DNA of 64,000 nt, from the NCBI GenBank assembly GCA_963717935.1, contig CAVQXP010000004.1:1600001-1664000 (forward strand), read 5' to 3'. The notes beneath the pieces were generated by a model. The model was not told the DNA's origin. It did not search any database and saw only the letters and a program-made list of their open reading frames with translations. A program made the position numbers and the translations under genes. Shown here in pieces: positions 43,562-53,768 of this stretch; position 1 is the first letter of the stretch, and each line of letters starts with the position of its first letter. The DNA comes from Candidatus Eiseniibacteriota bacterium (GTDB taxonomy: Bacteria > Eisenbacteria > RBG-16-71-46).

Positions 43562-45678
43562 ATGAGCCGCACCGCCACGCTCCGGCGCGGAACCCGCGCC
43601 TTCGCCGCCTCTGCGGCACTCTTCGCCATCCTGGTCGCAGCCGTTCTCCTGCCGGACGCCGTCCGAGCGGACGAGGGCATGTGGACCTTCGACCACCTGC
43701 CGCTCCAGCGGCTGCAGGAGCGCTACGACTTCACGCCCACGCCCGAATGGGTCGAGCACGTCCAGAGGGCCTCGATCAACTTCGGCGGTGGTTCGGGTGC
43801 CTTCGTGTCGCCCGACGGGCTGGCGCTCACGAACCACCACGTGGCGCTCGGCCAGATGGCGAAGATGTCCTCGCCCGGGCACGACTACGTCCGCGACGGC
43901 TTCTTCGCGCGCACTCGCGCCGAGGAGCTGCCCTGCCCCGACCTCGAGCTCAAGGTGCTGATGACCAGCCAGGACGTGACCGCCCGCGTCCTGGGGGCGG
44001 TGGACTCGGCGGCCGTCGACCAGCGAGCAGAGCGCCCAGCGCAAGGTGGCCATGGCCCGCATCGAGCAGGAGGGGAGCCGCGACGGGCTCAGGGGCGAGG
44101 TGGTCGAGCTGTACCGCGGTGGCGAGTACTGGCTCTACCGCTACAAGACCTACAAGGACGTGCGCCTGGTGTGCGCGCCCGAGGAGCAGGCCGCCTTCTT
44201 CGGCGGCGACCTCGACAACTTCTGCTATCCCGCGCCACGACCTGGACTTCGCCTTCTTCCGCGTCTACGAGGACGGCCGGCCGGTCCGCCCGCAGCACTG
44301 GTTCCGCTGGAGCAAGGAGGGCGCGCGCGAGGGCGACCTCGTCTTCGTGGCGGGCAATCCGGGCACGACCAAGCGACTCTACACCGTGGCGCAACTCGAC
44401 CACGAGCGGAACCTGCGATCTGCCGCTGCGGATCCGCCTCAACGAGCAGCGCCTCGCGGCCTACCGGGCCTACGGGGCGCGCGGGCCCGAGCAGGAGCGC
44501 CAGGCCCGCGACCGGGTCCGCGGCCTCGAGAACAACCTCAAGCGCCAGCACGGTTTCCTGGAGGTGCTCTCGGACTCCGGCGGTGATGAAGGCGCGCCGC
44601 GACCGCCGAGGCGGCCCTGCGCCAGCGCATCGCCGCGAACCAGGCGGTCTCGGGGCTGGCGAGCCTCGCCTGGGAGCGCATCGCCGGCGCCATGAAGGAG
44701 ATGGGCCGCCGGCACACGGAGCACGTGGTGCGCGATCTCTCGCGTTCGAGCCGCCTGCTCGACATCGCGAACGGCATCGTGCGCTACACCACCGAGGTGG
44801 TGAAGCCCAACGAGCGAGCGCTTCAAGGAGTACCGCGACGCGAGGCTCGACTCCGAGCGCTTCCGGCTCTTCTCGCTCGCGCCCGTCTATCCCGAGATGG
44901 AGGAGATGACCCTCGGCGTGGTCCTGAGGCAGTGCCGCGGACGAGCTGGGCGCGGACGATCCGTTCGTCCAGGCTGGCGCTGGGCGGACGCACGCCGCAG
45001 GAGTGTCGCGCACACGCTGATCGCGGGCACGAAGCTGGGCGACCTCGCCGTGCGCACGGGCCCTGATCGAGGGCGGTGCGCAGGGCCGTGGCCGCCTCGA
45101 AGGATCCGCTCATCGTCTGGGCGCGTAGGCTCGACGCTCCCTACCGCGAGCTGCGTGCCTGGCACGAGGACCGCGTGCAAAGCGTCGAGACCCTGGACGG
45201 CGGGAGGATCGCGCGGGCGCGCTTCGCGCTCGAGGGCCGGGCGCTGCCCCCGGATGCCACCGGCTCGCTGCGGCTCTCCTACGGGAAGGCGGTCGGCTAC
45301 CCGCAACTGAGCACGCTGGTGCCCTGGGCCACCACGTTCCACGGCCTCTTCGACCGGGCGCTGAGCTTCGGTGGCCAGCCGCCGTTCGACCTGCCGGCGC
45401 GCGTCGCCGAGCACGAGAAGGACCTCGATCTGGCCACGCCGCTGAACTTCGTCAGCACCGACGACATCATCGGGGGGAACTCGGGCAGCGCGGTGCTGAA
45501 CCGCGCAGGCGAGTACGTGGGCCTGGTGTTCGACGGCAACGTGCAGGCCTACGCCTGGGACTACTACTACACCGAGGAGCAGGCGCGCTGCGTCTCGGTG
45601 CATTCGCGGGCGCTGATCGAGGTGCTGCGGAAGGTCTACGACCTGGGCGCGCTGGCGGACGAGGTGGAGGGGAAGTAG
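43562..45678 (+). pseudogene. S46-family dipeptidyl peptidase, multiply frameshifted (probably sequencing indels)
   Basis: ADEGMW, LTNHHV, DVRLV.APE, FFGGD.DNF, GNPGTT, PDATGSLRLSYG, DIIGGNSGS and GLVFDGN spread over all three frames. Confidence 0.85.
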
Positions 45679-45890
45679 CCCCCGGGCACGGCGCCAGAGG
45701 CGCGGCGGGGACCAGCGGAGGGCGAGCGTGTCCGTACTTAGCCGCCTTCCGCTGGTCCCCGCCGCGCCTCTGGCGCCAGGGCAGGTCGGAGGGCGAACGT
45801 GCGGACGATCAGCCGCCCTCCGGCTGGCCCCGCCTCCGTCGCGCCCTGTTGGAGTCCCGGACTCGCCCTGTGGCATAGTGCGGCCCGACC

Positions 45891-47386
45891 ATGACCTCCA
45901 CCCGCGCATCCGGTCTCCTGCTGCATCCGACGTCGCTCCCCGGACGCTTCGGCATCGGCGACCTCGGGCCCGAGGCGTCGCGCTGGGTGGACTTCCTCGC
46001 CGCGGCAGGGCAGAGGCTCTGGCAGGTCCTGCCGCTCGGTCCCACCGGATACGGCGACTCGCCCTACCAGAGCTTCTCGGCCTTCGCCGGGAACCCGTAC
46101 CTCGTGAGCCCCGAGCGGTTGTCCGAGGACGGTCTGCTGGGGCCCTCGGACCTCGCGGGAGTGCCAGCGTTCCCCGCCGACCGCGTGGACTACGGTCCGG
46201 TGATCGAGTGGAAGCTCGCGATCCTGGCGAAGGCCCACGCGCGCTTCTCGGCGGGCGCCGTCCCCGTGCTGCGCGCGGAGTACGATGGCTTCTGCCACGC
46301 ACAGGCGGACTGGCTCGAGGACTTCGCCCTCTTCATGGCGCTCAAGGAAGCGCACGGCGGTGCGACCTGGACCTCGTGGGAGAAGGGCCTGGTCGCGCGG
46401 GAGCCCGGGGCCCTCGCCGCCGCGCGCGAGCGCCTCGCGTCGGCGGTGGACTCGCAGCGTTTCCGCCAGTTCCTCTTCTTCCGCCAGTGGAGGGCGCTGC
46501 GCGCGCGCGCGCGCGCGGCAGGGCGTGCGCATCATCGGCGACCTGCCCATCTTCGTCGCGCACGACAGCGCCGACGTCTGGGCCCATCCGGAACTGTTCC
46601 AGCTCGACGCCCGGGGCGCGCCCGACGGTCGTGGCCGGCGTGCCGCCGGACTACTTCGCGAAGACCGGGCAGCTCTGGGGCAACCCGCTCTACCGCTGGG
46701 ACGACGCTGCGCGCGGGACGGCTACGCCTGGTGGGTGGAGCGGCTGCGCGCCACCTTCGAGGTCGTGGACGTCGTGCGGCTCGACCACTTCCGCGGCTTC
46801 GAGGCATGCTGGGAGGTGCCGGCGGGGCATGCCACGGCCGAGAACGGGCCGCTGGGTGAAGGGGCCGGGCGCGGCACTTCTTCGAGAGCGTGCGCGCCGC
46901 GCTGGGAGCGCTGCCCATCATCGCCGAGGACCTCGGCCTGATCACCCCCGAAGTCTTCGCGCTGCGCGACCGCTTCGATCTGCCGGGGATGAAGGTCCTG
47001 CAGTTCGCCTTCGAGAAGGACGCGCTGCACCCGTTCCTGCCGCACAACTTCCCGCACGAACTGCGTGGTCTACACCGGGACCCACGACAACGACACCACG
47101 CGCGGCTGGTACGCGAGCGCGCCCGAGAAGGAGCGCCACTTCGCGCGGTCCTATCTGGGTCGCGGAGGGCAGCGACATCACCTGGGACCTGATCCGCGCC
47201 GGCATGGCCTCGGTGGCCGACACGTTCATCGTGCCGCTGCAGGACGTCCTGGACCTGGGGCCCGAGGCGCGCATGAACCTGCCCGGCCGGCCGGGCGGCA
47301 ACTGGGGCTGGCGTTTCCGGCACGAGCAGGTGACGGACGCCGAGCGCGACCGGCTGCGGGGGCTCGTGGAGACCTACGGGCGATAG
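45891..47386 (+). pseudogene. malQ: 4-alpha-glucanotransferase (GH77), multiply frameshifted (probably sequencing indels)
   Basis: LLHPTSLP, WQVLPLGP, IIGDLPIFV, GVPPDYF..TGQLWGNP, RLDHFRGF, IAEDLG, YTGTHDNDT and RMNLPG in different frames. Confidence 0.88.
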
Positions 47387-47467
47387 CAGACCGCGGAGTT
47401 GGAGGCGCGTGGCCCTCTCCCGGTGTATATTCCCGGATTCCATGACCTTCCACCCGAGGCCCGCCGC

Positions 47468-49540
47468 ATGAATCCAGTCCCCGACTCGCCTGCCCTCCAG
47501 CCGCCCTCCGATCTCAACCCCCGGCACGAGCCGGTGCTCGACTTCCCCGACCGCGAGCTCGGAGAGATGACGCCGGCGGACTACCAGGCTCTGGGCTTCA
47601 TGTCGGGTCTCGAGGTGCACCAGCAGATCGTCACCCGCGGCAAGCTCTTCTGCCGCTGCCCGGCCGGCCGGCGCGTCACCCGCGTGGACGCCGAGGTGCT
47701 GCGTCACATGAGGCCCACGCTCTCCGAGTTGGGCGAGTACGACGGCTGCGCGCTCATGGAGTTCAAGACCCGCAAGGAGATCGTCTACCTGCTCGAGCGG
47801 GGCACGGTCTGCACCTACGAGATCGACGATACGCCGCCCTTCCCCATGGACGACGAGGCCGTGCGCGTGGCGCTCGAGATCGCGCTGCTCTTCGGCCTGA
47901 ACCTGGTCTCCGAGCTGCACGTGATGCGCAAGCAGTACCTGGATGGCTCGATCCCGACGGGCTTCCAGCGCACGGCGATGATGGGGCTCGCCGGGTGCAT
48001 CCCCTTCCGCGTGCCCGAGCTGGGCGTGGACCGCGAGCTGCGCATCCGGCAGTTCTCGCTCGAGGAGGACTCCTGCCGCGAGGTCTCGGACGTCGGGCAC
48101 CGCATCACCTTCCGCACCGACCGGCTGGGGATGCCGCTGATCGAGACGGTGACCGAGCCCGATCTCCTCACGCCCTACGAGGTCGCGGCGGGCGGGCGCC
48201 TCCTCTCCCGCGTGGCGCGGGCTTCGGGCAAGGTGCGTCGCGGGGCGGGCGCGGCGCGTCAGGACACGAACGTCTCGGTCGCGGGCGGCCGGCGCGTCGA
48301 GATCAAGGGCGTGGGCAACCACCGGCACCTGCCGCTGCTCACGCATAACGAGGCCTTCCGGCAGTTGAACCTGCTGCGGGTGCGGGCCGAGCTGCGCAGC
48401 CGCGGGGTGGAGGCGAAGGACCTGGCCGTCCCCGACGGGCCGCGGCCCTGGGAGCGCTCGCCACTCGTCGTGCACGCGGGCCCGATGCTCAGGCGCTGCG
48501 ACTACATGCCGCTGCGCGAGGCGCGCGAGCGCGGCGACACGGTGGTGGCGCTCGCGCTGCCCGGCTTCGGCGGCCTGCTGACGCGGGGCACCCAGCCGGG
48601 CGTGACCTTCGCGCGCGAGTTCGCCGACCGCGTGCGGGTGATCGCGTGCCTCACGGCGCGGCCCTTCATGATCCACTCCGACCTGTCGGACTACGGTCTG
48701 ACCCCGGCCGAATGGCGGTCGCTGCGGAAGAGCCTGCGCGCGGGGCCGTCGGACGCCGTCCTGGTGCTGTGGGGCACCGAGCAGGATGTGGAGACGGCGG
48801 TGCGCGAGGCGTTCCTGCGGGCGCGTGACGCGCTGGTCGGCGTGCCCGCGGAGACGCGGCAGTCCTTCCTGGACGGGACCACCGGATTCGAGCGCATCCT
48901 GCCCGGGGCCGATCGCATGTACCCCGACACCGATACACCCCCGAAGGCCATCCCGGAAGCGTGGGTGGCCGAGATCACCGCGCGCCTGTCCGAGCGCCCC
49001 TGGGAGCGGGAGAAGCGCTACCGCGCCCTCGGGTTCGCCGTGGTGCTGGCGGGCCGGCTGGCCGATGCCACCGAGACCGCGGATCTCTTCGACGCGCTCG
49101 CCGTGCCGGCAGGACCGGCTGCGGCGCGCGTGGCGGGCGCGCTGCTCAAACGTCCTGCGCGCTGGCGCCGCAGGCGGGCGGGCGAATCCCCGGCGAATCC
49201 GGAGCGGTTGAAGCCCCTGGTGGATGCCTTCGTGCAGGGCGAGTTACGGCCGGAGGGCTTCGAGCGCGCGCTCGAGCGCGCGCTGGCCGAGCCGGAACGG
49301 ACGGTGGCGGAGCTGCTCGACAGCGTGCGACCGCGAGCGGGCGATGTCGAAGAGGCCGGGCGGAGCATCGCCGCGGCGGTCGAGCGCTGCCGGGCGCTGC
49401 CGGACCGTCCGCGCGCGAGCCTGGTGCGCTGGGCCATGGGACTGGTGATGCGCGACCTGATCGGGCGCGTGGACCCGCGCGAGGTGCAGGCGCGGCTCGA
49501 GCGAGCGCTCGCGGCCCGGAAGGAGGGGGTGGGGCGATGA
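47468..49540 (+). CDS. gatE: Glu-tRNA(Gln) amidotransferase subunit E (archaeal type)
   Basis: GLEVHQQ..KLFCRCP, RPTLSELGEYD, MRKQYLDGS..TGFQRT, LEEDSCR, DRLGMPLIE, RQDTNVSV.GG.RVEIKGV, an insertion domain (IHSDL..YGL), LPGADRMYPDTD. Confidence 0.92.
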   Translation: MNPVPDSPALQPPSDLNPRHEPVLDFPDRELGEMTPADYQALGFMSGLEVHQQIVTRGKLFCRCPAGRRVTRVDAEVLRHMRPTLSELGEYDGCALMEFKTRKEIVYLLERGTVCTYEIDDTPPFPMDDEAVRVALEIALLFGLNLVSELHVMRKQYLDGSIPTGFQRTAMMGLAGCIPFRVPELGVDRELRIRQFSLEEDSCREVSDVGHRITFRTDRLGMPLIETVTEPDLLTPYEVAAGGRLLSRVARASGKVRRGAGAARQDTNVSVAGGRRVEIKGVGNHRHLPLLTHNEAFRQLNLLRVRAELRSRGVEAKDLAVPDGPRPWERSPLVVHAGPMLRRCDYMPLREARERGDTVVALALPGFGGLLTRGTQPGVTFAREFADRVRVIACLTARPFMIHSDLSDYGLTPAEWRSLRKSLRAGPSDAVLVLWGTEQDVETAVREAFLRARDALVGVPAETRQSFLDGTTGFERILPGADRMYPDTDTPPKAIPEAWVAEITARLSERPWEREKRYRALGFAVVLAGRLADATETADLFDALAVPAGPAAARVAGALLKRPARWRRRRAGESPANPERLKPLVDAFVQGELRPEGFERALERALAEPERTVAELLDSVRPRAGDVEEAGRSIAAAVERCRALPDRPRASLVRWAMGLVMRDLIGRVDPREVQARLERALAARKEGVGR

Positions 49541-50925
49541 CGGACGACCGCTACAAGGGCTACCGCGAGCCCTGCCTGTCGGTCCTGAAGCGGTTCGACG
49601 TGACCGTGTGGTGCGAGGTGCGGGCCCGCACCTCGCGCGGCGATTTCGAGGGCCTGCTGCTCCCGCGCTCGGAGACCGCCGACCCGCTCCACCTCGTGCT
49701 CAAGCTCACCACCGGCTACAACGTGGGGCTGCGCCACGACACGGTCACCGGGCTCGAGAAGATCGGCTACCGCGAGGCGCACTACCAGATCCCCGAGCGT
49801 GAGTTCCCGGTGAACCCGGCCATGCCCCGCGTCAAGCTCCTCGGCACGGGTGGTACGATCGCCTCGCGGCTCGACTACCGCACCGGGGCGGTCATCCCCG
49901 CCTTCAGCCCCGGCGAGCTCTACGGCTCGGTGCCCGAGCTCGCCGACATCTGCAACCTCGAGACGGAGAAGCTCTTCGGGGTGTTCTCGGAGAACATGGG
50001 GCCGGAGCAGTACATCGTGCTGGCGGAGCGGATCGGCGAGGCCATCCGAGACGGCTGGGACGGCGTCGTGGTCGGGCATGGCACCGACACCATGCACCAC
50101 ACGGCCGCGGCGCTCTCGTTCATGGTCCAGCGCTCGCCGGTGCCCGTCATCATGGTGGGCAGCCAGCGTTCCTCGGACCGGCCTTCCTCGGACGCGGCGC
50201 AGAACCTCATCAGCGCGACGTGGGCCGCCGCGCACGGGCCCATCGCCGAAGTCATGGTGTGCATGTTCGGCCCGACGTCTGACCGCTACAACCTGCTGCA
50301 CCGGGGGACGCGCGTGCGCAAGATGCACACCTCCTACCGCAGCACCTTCCGCACGCTGGGGGACATCCCGCTCGCGATGGTCGAGCGCGGGAAGCTCACG
50401 CCGCTCAAGGAGGACTGGGCACCCCGGCGCAAGGACCGGGACGTGACGGTGCAGGCGGTCTTCGAGGAGCGCGTCACGATCGTCTACTACTATCCGAACA
50501 TGAACCCCGACCTGATCGACGCGCTGGTGGAGAAGGGCTACAAGGGGATCGTCATCGCGGGCACGGGCCTGGGGCACGTGAACCGCAAGATCTATCCGGC
50601 CCTCGATCGCGCCCGCAGCGCCGGGGTGCTGATCTTCATGGCCGTGCAGACGCTCTGGGGCTTCGTGCAGATGTACGTCTACGAGACGGGGCGGGAGATC
50701 CTGGAGCTGGGGGTCACTCCGCTCGCGAACATGCTGCCCGAGGTGGCCTACATCAAGCTGGGCTGGGCGCTCGGCGTGCATCCCGACGATCCCGAGGCGG
50801 CGCGGCGGCTCATGGTCACGCCGATCGCGGGCGAGACCACCGAGCGCGAGCCGCACGACGGCTACCTGGTGTTCCAGGGCGGTGTTCCCGAGATCCAGGA
50901 GTTCCTGGGCAAGGTCTGGAAGTGA
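49537..50925 (+). CDS. gatD: Glu-tRNA(Gln) amidotransferase subunit D (archaeal type; asparaginase fold plus N-terminal domain)
   Basis: VLKLTTGYNVG, TGGTIASRLDYRTGAV, HGTDTM, GSQRSSDRPSSDA, RKMHTS.R, GTGLGHV; ATGA overlap with gatE. Confidence 0.94.
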   Translation: MTDDRYKGYREPCLSVLKRFDVTVWCEVRARTSRGDFEGLLLPRSETADPLHLVLKLTTGYNVGLRHDTVTGLEKIGYREAHYQIPEREFPVNPAMPRVKLLGTGGTIASRLDYRTGAVIPAFSPGELYGSVPELADICNLETEKLFGVFSENMGPEQYIVLAERIGEAIRDGWDGVVVGHGTDTMHHTAAALSFMVQRSPVPVIMVGSQRSSDRPSSDAAQNLISATWAAAHGPIAEVMVCMFGPTSDRYNLLHRGTRVRKMHTSYRSTFRTLGDIPLAMVERGKLTPLKEDWAPRRKDRDVTVQAVFEERVTIVYYYPNMNPDLIDALVEKGYKGIVIAGTGLGHVNRKIYPALDRARSAGVLIFMAVQTLWGFVQMYVYETGREILELGVTPLANMLPEVAYIKLGWALGVHPDDPEAARRLMVTPIAGETTEREPHDGYLVFQGGVPEIQEFLGKVWK

Positions 50926-50947
50926 ACCGACGAGGACGGATGACCGC

Positions 50948-52407
50948 ATGAAGCCGACGACGATGGCACCGACCGAAGCGAAACCGGCGCGTGGAGCGGG
51001 AGCGGTGGCTGCCGCGAGTCCCGGGTCCCCGAGCCTGCCCGCCTGTCTGCTCGAACGCCTGATCGGCCGCCCGGCCGCCACCTGGACGGTGGACGACCTG
51101 GTGACGCTCGCCGCCGGGCGCGGCGTGCGTCTCGTGAGCCTCATGCACGTGGGCGGCGACGGCTGGCTCAAGGTCCTGGACTTCGTGCCACGGAGCCGCG
51201 AGCACCTGCGCGACATCCTCTCCGGGGGCGAGCGCGCCGACGGCTCGAGCCTGTTCGCGGGGCTCGGGCCTCGAGGTGGGGGCCTCGGACATCCTGTTGC
51301 GGCCCCGTGTCGAGACCGCGTTCCTCGATCCGTTCGCGGTCCAGCCGACGCTGGTGCTGCTCTGCGGCCACGCGGGGCGCGACGGCGCGCCGCCTGCCGC
51401 AGTCACCCGACACCATCGTGCGCCAGGCCGGCGAGCGGCTGGTGCGCGAGCTGGGCGTCGAGTTGCACGCGCTGGGCGAGGTCGAGTACTTCCTCGGCCG
51501 GCGCGCGGGCGAGGAGGATGTCTACGGCGCGAACGACCGGGGCTACCACGCCACGTCGCCGTTCGTCTTCGGCGAGGCGCTGCGGCGCGAGGCCATGGCC
51601 CTGCTGGCCGAGATCGGCGTGCCCGGTCAAGTACGGGCACAGCGAGGTGGGCTACGTCCAGGCCACCGAGGCGGACGGGCTCATCTGGGAGCAGCACGAG
51701 ATCGAACTGGGACTCGCTCCGCTGCGCGGCCGCCGCCGACGCGGTGGTGCTCACCCAGTGGGTGCTGCGCAACCTCGCGCACCGGCAGGGCATGCGCTGC
51801 AGCTTCGATCCCATCCTGCGACGCGGCCACGCCGGCACGGGCCTGCACTTCCACTTCTCGCCGGTCCGCGACGGGGAGCACCTCGGCGGGCGCGGCGCGG
51901 ACGGGAGCGCTGAGCCCGCCGGCGCAGTGGCTCATCGCGCGGGCTGGTGCGCATGGGCGGGGCGCTCATGGCGTTCGGCAACCGCACCGAGGGCTCGCTC
52001 ATCCGCCTGACCCAGGCCAAGGAGGCGCCCAACGCCATCGTCTGGGGCGAGTTCGACCGCAGCGCGCTGGTGCGGCTGCCGATCGTGGCGCGCACCGAGG
52101 ACGGCCGGCCGGTGAGCCCGCCGACCATCGAGTTCCGGCTGCCCGACGGCTCGGCCCACCCGCACCTGCTGCTCGCGGGCGTGGCGCAGGTGATGGTCGA
52201 GGCGACGGGCGAGCGCGGACGTCGAGGCGCTGCTCGAGCGCACGTCGGTGACGGCGCTCAAGCGCGGAGCGGGGACGGTCGACACCCGTGCCGACACGGT
52301 TCCTCGAGGTGGCGGAGGCGCTGACGGCCAGCCGCGCCGCGCTCGAAGCGGGCGGGGTCTTCCCGCCGGTGCTCCTCGACCGGCTGATCGAGCGCCTGCG
52401 GGCGTAG
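50948..52407 (+). pseudogene. glnA: Glutamine synthetase (type I-like), multiply frameshifted (probably sequencing indels)
   Basis: DGSS, GEVEYF, HSEVG, QHEIE, GTGLHFHFS, RL...EAP...WG..DRSALVRLP and IEFRLPD across frames. Confidence 0.8.
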
Positions 52408-52416
52408 CGCGCCCGC

Positions 52417-53768
52417 TCAGGCGGTGGTCGCCAGCGCCTCGTCGATGGTCGTGCAGTCCACCAGCCCGCTGCAGCCGTAGAGCACGGGCAGCAGCTTCTC
52501 CGGCGGATGATGGCGCCGCAGCTCGGCGACGAGATCGGTCCCCGCGCGGTAGCACGGCAGGTACATGCGCCCCATCAGCGGGTGCCTGCCCCAGGCGCCG
52601 GCGAACTTCTTCGCCCGCTCCTCGGAGACCAGGAAGTCGCGCCGCAGCACCGGCGCCACGTCCGCCTCGGCCGCGCGCTCCTGCCAGGTGAGGTACGAGG
52701 CCTGGTTCTTGGCGTCGTCCTGCAGCAGCGCCAGCAGCAGCCCGATCTTCAGGTCGTCGTCGGGGATCTGGTCCAGCTCGGTCACGCCGTGAGCGATGAG
52801 GATGGCGTTGTTGGCGATGCCCTCGAAGAGCGTGGCCGCGCGGGTGTTCATGGTGAGCACCGAGGCCTCGAAGCCCACCTGGCCGCGCCAGTAGAGGTCC
52901 TGCAGGAAGGCGAAGGTGGTGACGTGGCCGGGCACGACCTCGTGCGAGACGAGCTGCTCGAACTCCGGCACCGTGATCTGGAGCGACGCGTTGATCTCGT
53001 AGGAGGCCTCGTACTCGGGCCGGCCGCCGGGACGGCGCCTGCGGCCGAGGTAGTTCATCGAACCCGAGAACCAGGCGTCCTTGATGGGCAGGAACTCGAT
53101 GTTGTCCATGGGCACGTCGCCGAGTTCGGCTCGGCAGGAACGGGCGCAGGTTGCGCTCGGCCAGCGCGCGATAGTGGGCGATGTAGGCGCCGCCCACGGA
53201 GCGCACGCAGGCCATCGGGCACGTAGCGCGTGCCGCGCCAGGCGTCCACCGCCGCGAGCAGGTCGGCGTCGCTCGCCGACGGGTGGCCCGCGCGCGCCAG
53301 CAGTTCCTGCACCTGGCGGCGCTTCGTCGCCGGGTCCGAGGGCGAGGGCGGCTGGCCGGTCGAGGCCAGCACGCAGCGCTCGTAGGGGACGGGCTCACCC
53401 TTGCCGAGGATCTCCAGCCCCAGGTCCAGCATGACCTCGAAGCACAGGGCGAGTCCCGCGACGTAACGGCCGCGCAGGCCGCTCATGCTCTTCGCCTCCG
53501 TGCCGAGGGCGGCGATGGCGCCGCGCACGTCCACCGCGGCGAGGTAGGTCTCGACGGCGGCGCGGTCGGGCTCCTTCGCGGACACCCCGCCGCTCTCGCG
53601 CACGCGCGCGGCCGCCGGGTGCGTGTAGGCGGGTGGCAAGGGGGCGTCGGAGAACCAGGAGTCGGCGATGAAGCGCCCGAGGCCGGAGGGGTTCATGACG
53701 TCGCCGCCCCAGAGGGTGTCGATGCCGAGGACGGCGTTGGCGACGTGCTCGTCGAAGCGCTGGCTCAT
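52417..53768 (-). pseudogene. Zincin-like protein with DUF885-type HExxPGH motif, frameshifted near 53130-53220
   Basis: GAGGAGG SD at start; ORFs 53055..53768 and 52417..53115 join into one protein; HEVVPGH...FEG motif. Confidence 0.65.

Follow-up and report, generated by a model that had tools for sequence, protein, structure and literature searches.

The closest described relatives of the system treated here are the archaeal Glu-tRNA(Gln) amidotransferase GatDE, known from Pyrococcus abyssi (1ZQ1) and Methanothermobacter thermautotrophicus (2D6F), and the amidotransferase GatCAB of some bacteria. In Thermus, Deinococcus and Bdellovibrio, GatCAB persists next to both asparaginyl- and glutaminyl-tRNA synthetase (AsnRS and GlnRS) and serves to make asparagine on tRNA (PMC4206432). 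Here we describe a gatE-gatD gene pair followed by a divergent glutamine synthetase (GS) gene in an uncultured bacterium of Candidatus Eisenbacteria (genome G000; assembly of 3.02 Mb in 5 contigs, 72% GC). The three genes lie in a 64,000-nucleotide (nt) stretch of contig C4 (G000:C4:1600001-1664000), referred to as the window, and coordinates are window positions.

A probable gatE-gatD-GS operon and its amidotransferase

Both GatDE subunits align over their full length with the archaeal enzymes, show a like domain order and pass their NCBIfam equivalog cut-offs. GatD scored 485.9 bits on gatD_arch (TIGR02153, cut-off 324), carries the Pfam domains GatD_N, Asparaginase and Asparaginase_C, and has its best solved relatives in 1zq1_A (E 8.8e-114) and 2d6f_A. 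The motifs TGGTIA and HGTDTM are present in its translation, and we take these to be catalytic. GatE scored 391.1 bits on gatE_arch (TIGR00134, cut-off 319.55) and fell just below the cut-off of a second model, NF003107 (451.3 bits, cut-off 456); its best solved relatives are likewise archaeal (1zq1_C, E 1.7e-88, residues 38-680 aligned; 2d6f_C). The protein has a GatB/GatE catalytic domain (GatB_N, 137 bits) into which a GAD-like domain is inserted, and it ends in a YqeY-like tail; the GAD (21.9 bits) and GatB_Yqey (19.2 bits) matches both lie under the Pfam gathering scores. On these sequence criteria, GatE and GatD are orthologous along their whole length to the archaeal amidotransferase of Glu-tRNA(Gln).

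The setting differs from that of the archaeal enzyme. GatDE, which a 2021 review presents as confined to archaea (PMC8007984), occurs here in a bacterium whose genome also encodes GlnRS, AsnRS and GatCAB, and its genes share one operon with GS. An amidotransferase in a genome with both direct-charging synthetases recalls Thermus, Deinococcus and Bdellovibrio, except that the enzyme there is GatCAB and the one here is GatDE, whose substrate is putative. The bacterial branch of the GatDE family that includes the window's GatE and GatD is large; among the best 80 loci seeded with GatE, all 80 were bacterial (Gemmatimonadota, Acidobacteriota, many Bacteroidota, Krumholzibacteriota, Myxococcota, Planctomycetota and others) and gatD came next after gatE in 70. 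Literature searches on bacterial GatDE found no paper.

The three genes form a tight unit on the forward strand, at the position given by the initial annotation (Table 1). The gatE stop and the gatD start share the sequence ATGA, and the GS-family gene follows gatD directly with no obvious terminator between them, as that annotation had observed; counting from the gatD stop at 50925 to the ATG at 50949 gives a gap of 23 nt, not the 22 nt stated there. A consensus scan of positions 47000-53000 returned no terminator-like or sigma-70-like promoter site, and no Rfam match was obtained in 46500-53500 (E<=1). Near 59 gatED or GS loci, the only tRNA genes were two unrelated ones (Ser, Leu). We infer that gatE, gatD and GS are co-transcribed as a resident operon of Candidatus Eisenbacteria.

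The explanation we favour, with moderate confidence, is co-expression of GatDE with a catalytically complete GS, from which it would draw its amide donor. Co-translated GS would provide glutamine, GatD would hydrolyse this glutamine, the ammonia from GatD would pass to GatE, and GatE would amidate Glu-tRNA(Gln) with ATP, so that in net terms ammonia would drive the making of Gln-tRNA(Gln). The coupling would operate through co-expression and without a dedicated GS-GatDE complex. In sister strains the same GS has asnA as its partner, and in further strains it has no partner.

A divergent clade of type-I-like glutamine synthetases

The GS gene is broken into frame pieces in the G000 assembly (discussed below); the protein data given here are those of the intact ortholog in G004, whose genome is complete and belongs to the same genus. 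It scored 137.7 bits on the GlnA equivalog model (TIGR00653), far under the cut-off of 429.15, and 82 bits on the GS type III model. In Pfam, Gln-synt_C was matched with 119 bits, and Gln-synt_N with 29.4 bits, under its gathering score of 33.4. An AlphaFold model of the protein (predicted local distance difference test score (pLDDT) 86, predicted template modelling score (pTM) 0.88) was compared with solved structures using Foldseek; the top matches were all type I GS, with template modelling (TM) scores of 0.75-0.82 and 22-26% identity. Conservation within the clade of this protein exceeds 60% over several phyla. The clade is large in metagenomes, where the best 120 clusters were 62-100% identical, with source names of either "glutamine synthetase" or "hypothetical".

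We aligned 17 sequences, comprising 14 of the clade, two of a sister type and one bona fide GlnA above cut-off. The motifs DGSS, ExE, GY, HxE, E..E and GxGxHxH were invariant in all 17, as were the equivalents of R321, E327, R339, R344, E357 and R359. The invariant positions thus take in the metal ligands, the arginines for glutamate and ATP, and the equivalents of D50, S53, Y179 and E327 at the ammonium site (S. typhimurium numbering, mapped from known motifs and cross-checked with PMC8998196). Compared with the type I enzymes GlnA (3NG0, 2BVC, 8OOQ), the clade shares the fold and all residues for metal, glutamate, ATP and ammonium, yet it is only 24-32% identical to them. It also carries two insertions of its own, one of about 10 residues located between the equivalents of E212 and E220 and one of about 5 residues after that of R344, and an N-terminal extension that is variable. 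Aligned to 3NG0, the protein does not conserve the stretch around the adenylylation tyrosine. Scores and alignment place this GS in a distinct and uncharacterised clade among the type-I-like glutamine synthetases. Since the complete catalytic apparatus is kept, its most likely reaction is glutamine synthesis from glutamate, ATP and ammonia.

The initial annotation had raised another reading: the divergent GS would be a gamma-glutamyl ligase, using some amine in place of ammonia, and the substrate of the three genes would not be a tRNA. PuuA and the Streptomyces proteins GlnA2 and GlnA3 are likewise divergent GS-family paralogs beside a housekeeping GS, and both the distance of our protein from the GlnA cut-off and the position of its two insertions close to active-site strands would suit such a ligase. 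However, the polyamine ligases GlnA2 and GlnA3 are substituted at S53, Y179, N264 or E327 (PMC8998196), whereas S53, Y179 and E327 are invariant in this clade. It differs at the N264 position alone, where it has Ala, and the aligned bona fide GlnA has Ala there too. The PuuA model (NF045547) gave 75.8 bits against a cut-off of 650. Furthermore, GatE has the architecture of a tRNA enzyme, and both GatE and GatD pass equivalog cut-offs of the archaeal amidotransferase. A true GS is much likelier than a gamma-glutamyl-amine ligase, and a non-tRNA role for the three genes is highly improbable.

Exchange of gatE-gatD and asnA in front of GS

Orthologs of the GS were collected from 22 loci (>=54% identity). 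Directly upstream of GS we found gatE-gatD in 8 of these (2 Eisenbacteria, 6 Gemmatimonadota), asnA in 6 and unrelated genes in the remaining 8. Adjacency of gatD and GS is seen in the genomes G000, G003, G004, G005, G007, G019, G065 and G098, besides the six Gemmatimonadota loci. The two cassettes, gatE-gatD and asnA, replace each other at one spot in front of GS. In Gemmatimonadota, both occur between the same NUDIX gene and GS with the same genes downstream, and DNA homology between loci of the two kinds breaks exactly at the cassette borders, between the upstream NUDIX gene and the GS start. A break at the cassette borders was also seen in two Eisenbacteria pairs, G004/G001 and G019/G023. 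The module linkage proposed by the initial annotation therefore holds in that the gatD-GS junction recurs in relatives, but it is not conserved throughout.

A quick IQ-TREE phylogeny of GS with SH-aLRT support (32 rows; L016 and L017 omitted as duplicates of L003 and L002; L036 labelled "other" although asnA abuts its GS) grouped the genes by taxon, with gatD-linked and asnA-linked genes interleaved down to sister pairs. Over well-supported branches, the GatD label changes at least 5 times and the AsnA label at least 6 times. The sister genes of L028 and L029 have different partners and are only 0.03-0.04 changes per site apart. Hence, GS is not dedicated to the amidotransferase as had been suggested: it does not sort by partner, it has asnA at 6 and neither partner at 8 of the 22 loci, and it follows gatD in just one of the 54 GatE-seeded loci with at least 1.5 kb beyond gatD, that of G004 itself.

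The same observations would fit a locus without any dedicated coupling, in which the GS clade heads an amide-nitrogen locus, recombination swaps the upstream partner (gatE-gatD, asnA or nothing) and the genes have only regulation in common, for example by nitrogen status. The interleaved partners, the near-identical sisters with unlike neighbours, the homology break between the NUDIX gene and the GS start and the loci with neither partner all speak for this. In a sample of 201 genomes from the phylum, however, 34 of the 38 genomes with the GS clade have gatDE or asnA of the GS-linked type, versus 54 of the 163 without the clade (related genomes are not independent, so that counts from this sample are no clean statistic). 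In addition, other types of GS stand independently beside gatED. Together, the partner enrichment and the independent GS neighbours call for more than chance co-location, and we consider an absence of coupling unlikely.

These independent neighbours came from the GatE side, although the majority of bacterial gatE-gatD loci are without a GS. A locus in Phycisphaerae has a canonical GlnA (461 bits, cut-off 429) just upstream of gatE, G069 has a canonical-type type I GS (49% identical) before gatE, and a Planctomycetia locus has a third GS type directly upstream of gatE. GlnRS was adjacent in 5 of the 80 GatE-seeded loci, with 4 of the 5 confirmed as glnS, lying directly after gatD or divergently before gatE (L105, L107, L109 and L118 in Gemmatimonadales, L112 in Myxococcota). 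At L107, a bacterial-type GluRS gene is also found upstream, and a gene of the Asp/Glu racemase family stands between gatE and gatD. AsnA was a neighbour in none of the 80. In separate lineages, gatED thus has GlnRS or one of three types of GS as a neighbour. This backs a glutamine theme and adds weight to the Glu-to-Gln-to-amide-transfer module of the initial annotation, though not to a dedicated GS.

The distribution of genes within the phylum sample points in another direction. We detected gatE in 26 of the 201 genomes, the GS clade in 38 (counting G000, which is below threshold solely through its frame breaks) and AsnA in 63. In 61 of the latter AsnA is of the GS-linked type, while G004 and G005 have a distinct, high-scoring, E. 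coli-like type. The GS-linked type occurs in none of the 26 gatE genomes versus 61 of the 175 others, and in families f13, f10, f8 and f2 exactly one of gatE and GS-linked asnA is present in 33 of 35 genomes. The 38 genomes with the GS clade divide into 16 with gatDE (counting G007, known from gatD), 18 with asnA and 4 with neither. In a sample of 201 Gemmatimonadota genomes, gatE (14) and AsnA (9) did not overlap, but with 0.6 overlaps expected these data are too sparse to inform.

This pattern raises the prospect that GatDE does the job of AsnA, amidating Asp-tRNA(Asn) either alone or besides Glu-tRNA(Gln), with GS feeding it glutamine and with gatE-gatD and asnA as alternative routes to asparagine for translation. 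Besides the mutual exclusion and the cassette swap, in which gatE-gatD takes the place of asnA at one locus in Eisenbacteria as well as in Gemmatimonadota, the tRNAs of G000 are compatible with it. Its tRNA-Asn and both tRNA-Gln have U1-A72, whereas tRNA-Asp and both tRNA-Glu have G1-C72, and an enzyme reading the U1-A72 pair could accept tRNA-Asn and tRNA-Gln alike. Against this, the neighbours of bacterial gatED suggest glutamine, and other routes to asparagine exist, with AsnRS in 179 of 201 genomes, AsnB-family genes in 31 of 31 relatives (both totals including the unpublished genome G020, which no claim depends on) and GatA in 5 of 5 checked. AsnRS and AsnB are so nearly universal that they do not tell gatDE and asnA carriers apart. 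Furthermore, G004 and G005 hold gatDE together with their E. coli-like asnA, the Gemmatimonadota sample is uninformative and related genomes are not independent. We regard this role as quite unlikely, and give the same low weight to its broader form, in which bacterial GatDE plus GS is a tRNA-dependent functional equivalent of AsnA, for instance an amidotransferase that is dual or specific for Asn and receives glutamine from a GS of its own. If true, bacterial GatDE would be no simple copy of the archaeal Gln-tRNA pathway.

Returning to a GS that supplies GatDE with glutamine for Glu-tRNA(Gln), a number of results weigh against it. The GS clade is found about as often beside asnA, whose product uses ammonia and not glutamine, as beside gatE-gatD (6 versus 8 of 22 loci), and it follows gatD at the single GatE-seeded locus noted above. 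Among the 26 gatE genomes of the phylum sample, GS comes directly after gatD in 7 and a canonical GS precedes gatE in 1, while 15 have no adjacent GS and 3 are not judgeable, hence no GS is adjacent at 15 of 23 judgeable loci. Both G000 and G004 encode GlnRS, AsnRS and GatA/GatB, so that on paper GatDE is not needed for Gln-tRNA and would be an accessory system. The exclusion of gatE and asnA points to asparagine rather than glutamine, and our explanation leaves it unaccounted for. Finally, an RNA-library contig of a relative of about 90% identity spans gatD-GS, but such a contig is no proof of a transcript. Glu-tRNA(Gln) is thus a putative substrate of bacterial GatDE, favoured by the GlnRS and GS neighbours, with the asnA exclusion pointing elsewhere. 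The cassette swap, the lack of co-occurrence in 201 genomes and the near-universal partner for the GS clade turn the role of GatDE in bacteria and the target of this GS into a testable question.

A search for GlnRS itself detected it in G000, G004 and G001 but in neither G019 nor G023, so that it does not separate gatDE from asnA carriers. About 43 kb beyond the operon on its downstream side, G000 has a cluster of genes for GlnRS, a GluRS-like protein, tRNA-Gln(CTG) and tRNA-Glu(CTC) (G000:C4:1693328-1696932).

Frame breaks in the GS gene and neighbouring features

In the G000 assembly, GS is not one open reading frame (ORF). The frame with high GC content at third codon positions (GC3, 0.94-1.00) shifts about seven times along the gene, and the Pfam Gln-synt_C and Gln-synt_N matches are divided among three ORF pieces. 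Aligned to the intact ortholog of G004 (90% DNA identity over gatE-gatD-GS), the gene has eight isolated changes, all of them +1 insertions (Table 1), and a single in-frame difference of 9 nt in the variable N-terminus. With the eight bases skipped, 478 codons with no internal stop remain. Differences between the corrected gene and that of G004 number 84 at third, 42 at first and 26 at second codon positions, with 79 synonymous and 56 non-synonymous codon differences, a pattern which looks selected.

Table 1. Features in and around the gatE-gatD-GS operon, in window positions.
Feature	Position	Strand	Description
gatE	47468-49540	+	690 amino acids from ATG at 47468; in-frame TTG upstream at 47399
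gatD	49537-50925	+	462 amino acids, asparaginase-type glutaminase subunit; stop TGA ends at 50925
gatD-GS spacer	50926-50948	+	23 nt, GAGGA Shine-Dalgarno-like motif; too short for a terminator
GS-family gene, divergent	50949-52407	+	about 480 amino acids in relatives, in frame pieces here; first ATG 50949, stop TAG 52405-52407
Eight single-base insertions in GS	near 51266, 51388, 51622, 51724, 51907, 51939, 52205, 52279	+	from alignment to G004
Gene before malQ	44024-45060		about six single-base insertions vs G004
malQ (Glyco_hydro_77)	45728-47386	+	nine single-base insertions vs G004; overlapping ORF pieces
Convergent gene	52417-53768	-	about 450 amino acids, conserved, without a match in Pfam or NCBIfam; split by insertions near 53129 and 53219

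We consider these frame breaks to be, very probably, assembly errors and not gene decay, because relatives are intact, an independent contig lacks the insertions, no stops remain after skipping and the same +1 damage occurs elsewhere. GS is a single open frame at 9 of 9 relatives' loci, and a protein search in 10 relatives showed it to be free of internal stops in all 10. A short-read contig of 2,038 nt from an unrelated public run on another sample (X2, about 95% identical, spanning 50742-52407) is without all eight bases, and contigs of runs X1 and X3 are without them at the GS sites tabulated for those contigs. Like damage is present in malQ, in the gene before it and in the convergent gene downstream. 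Outside the window, the adjacent gatA and gatB (G000:C4:1961771-1963931) are both divided between frames, hence the breaks strike genes expected to be essential. A GC3-based frame-switch scan of G000 gave 627 candidates in 3.02 Mb with a patchy distribution (0 to 30 per 20 kb), compared with 5 candidates in 80 kb of the G004 control. Such error patches will produce false pseudogenes, and the frameshifted GS of the window is a caution in this respect. GC content is also uneven among the contigs C1-C5 of G000 (C3 0.64, C1 0.68, the rest 0.71).

A recent pseudogene in this strain, a case that the initial annotation had listed as fatal to its module, would explain the eight frameshifts of the deposited sequence at face value and agree with the adjoining gatE and gatD, which have no net frameshift relative to G004. 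Moreover, in a search of public runs for the source reads, the best run contained just 29% of the sampled words, which leaves the assembly-error reading, and with it a catalytically complete GS in this operon, less secure. However, the uniform +1 changes, the uninterrupted corrected frame, the excess of third- over second-position differences and the genome-wide patches of similar damage make genuine loss of the gene very unlikely. As speculation, the clean gatE-gatD block amid damaged flanks could arise if errors form where several strains share sequence.

Upstream of the operon, 81 nt separate malQ from gatE. In G004 (contig C1; L016:840-2460), about 3.7 kb of additional DNA with an FG-GAP-repeat gene lies between malQ and gatE, and the window is without it. 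Downstream, 9 nt separate the GS stop from the end of the convergent gene, which is intact in G005 (L002:142-1497) and, within the genus, flanks GS in gatED-type and asnA-type loci alike.

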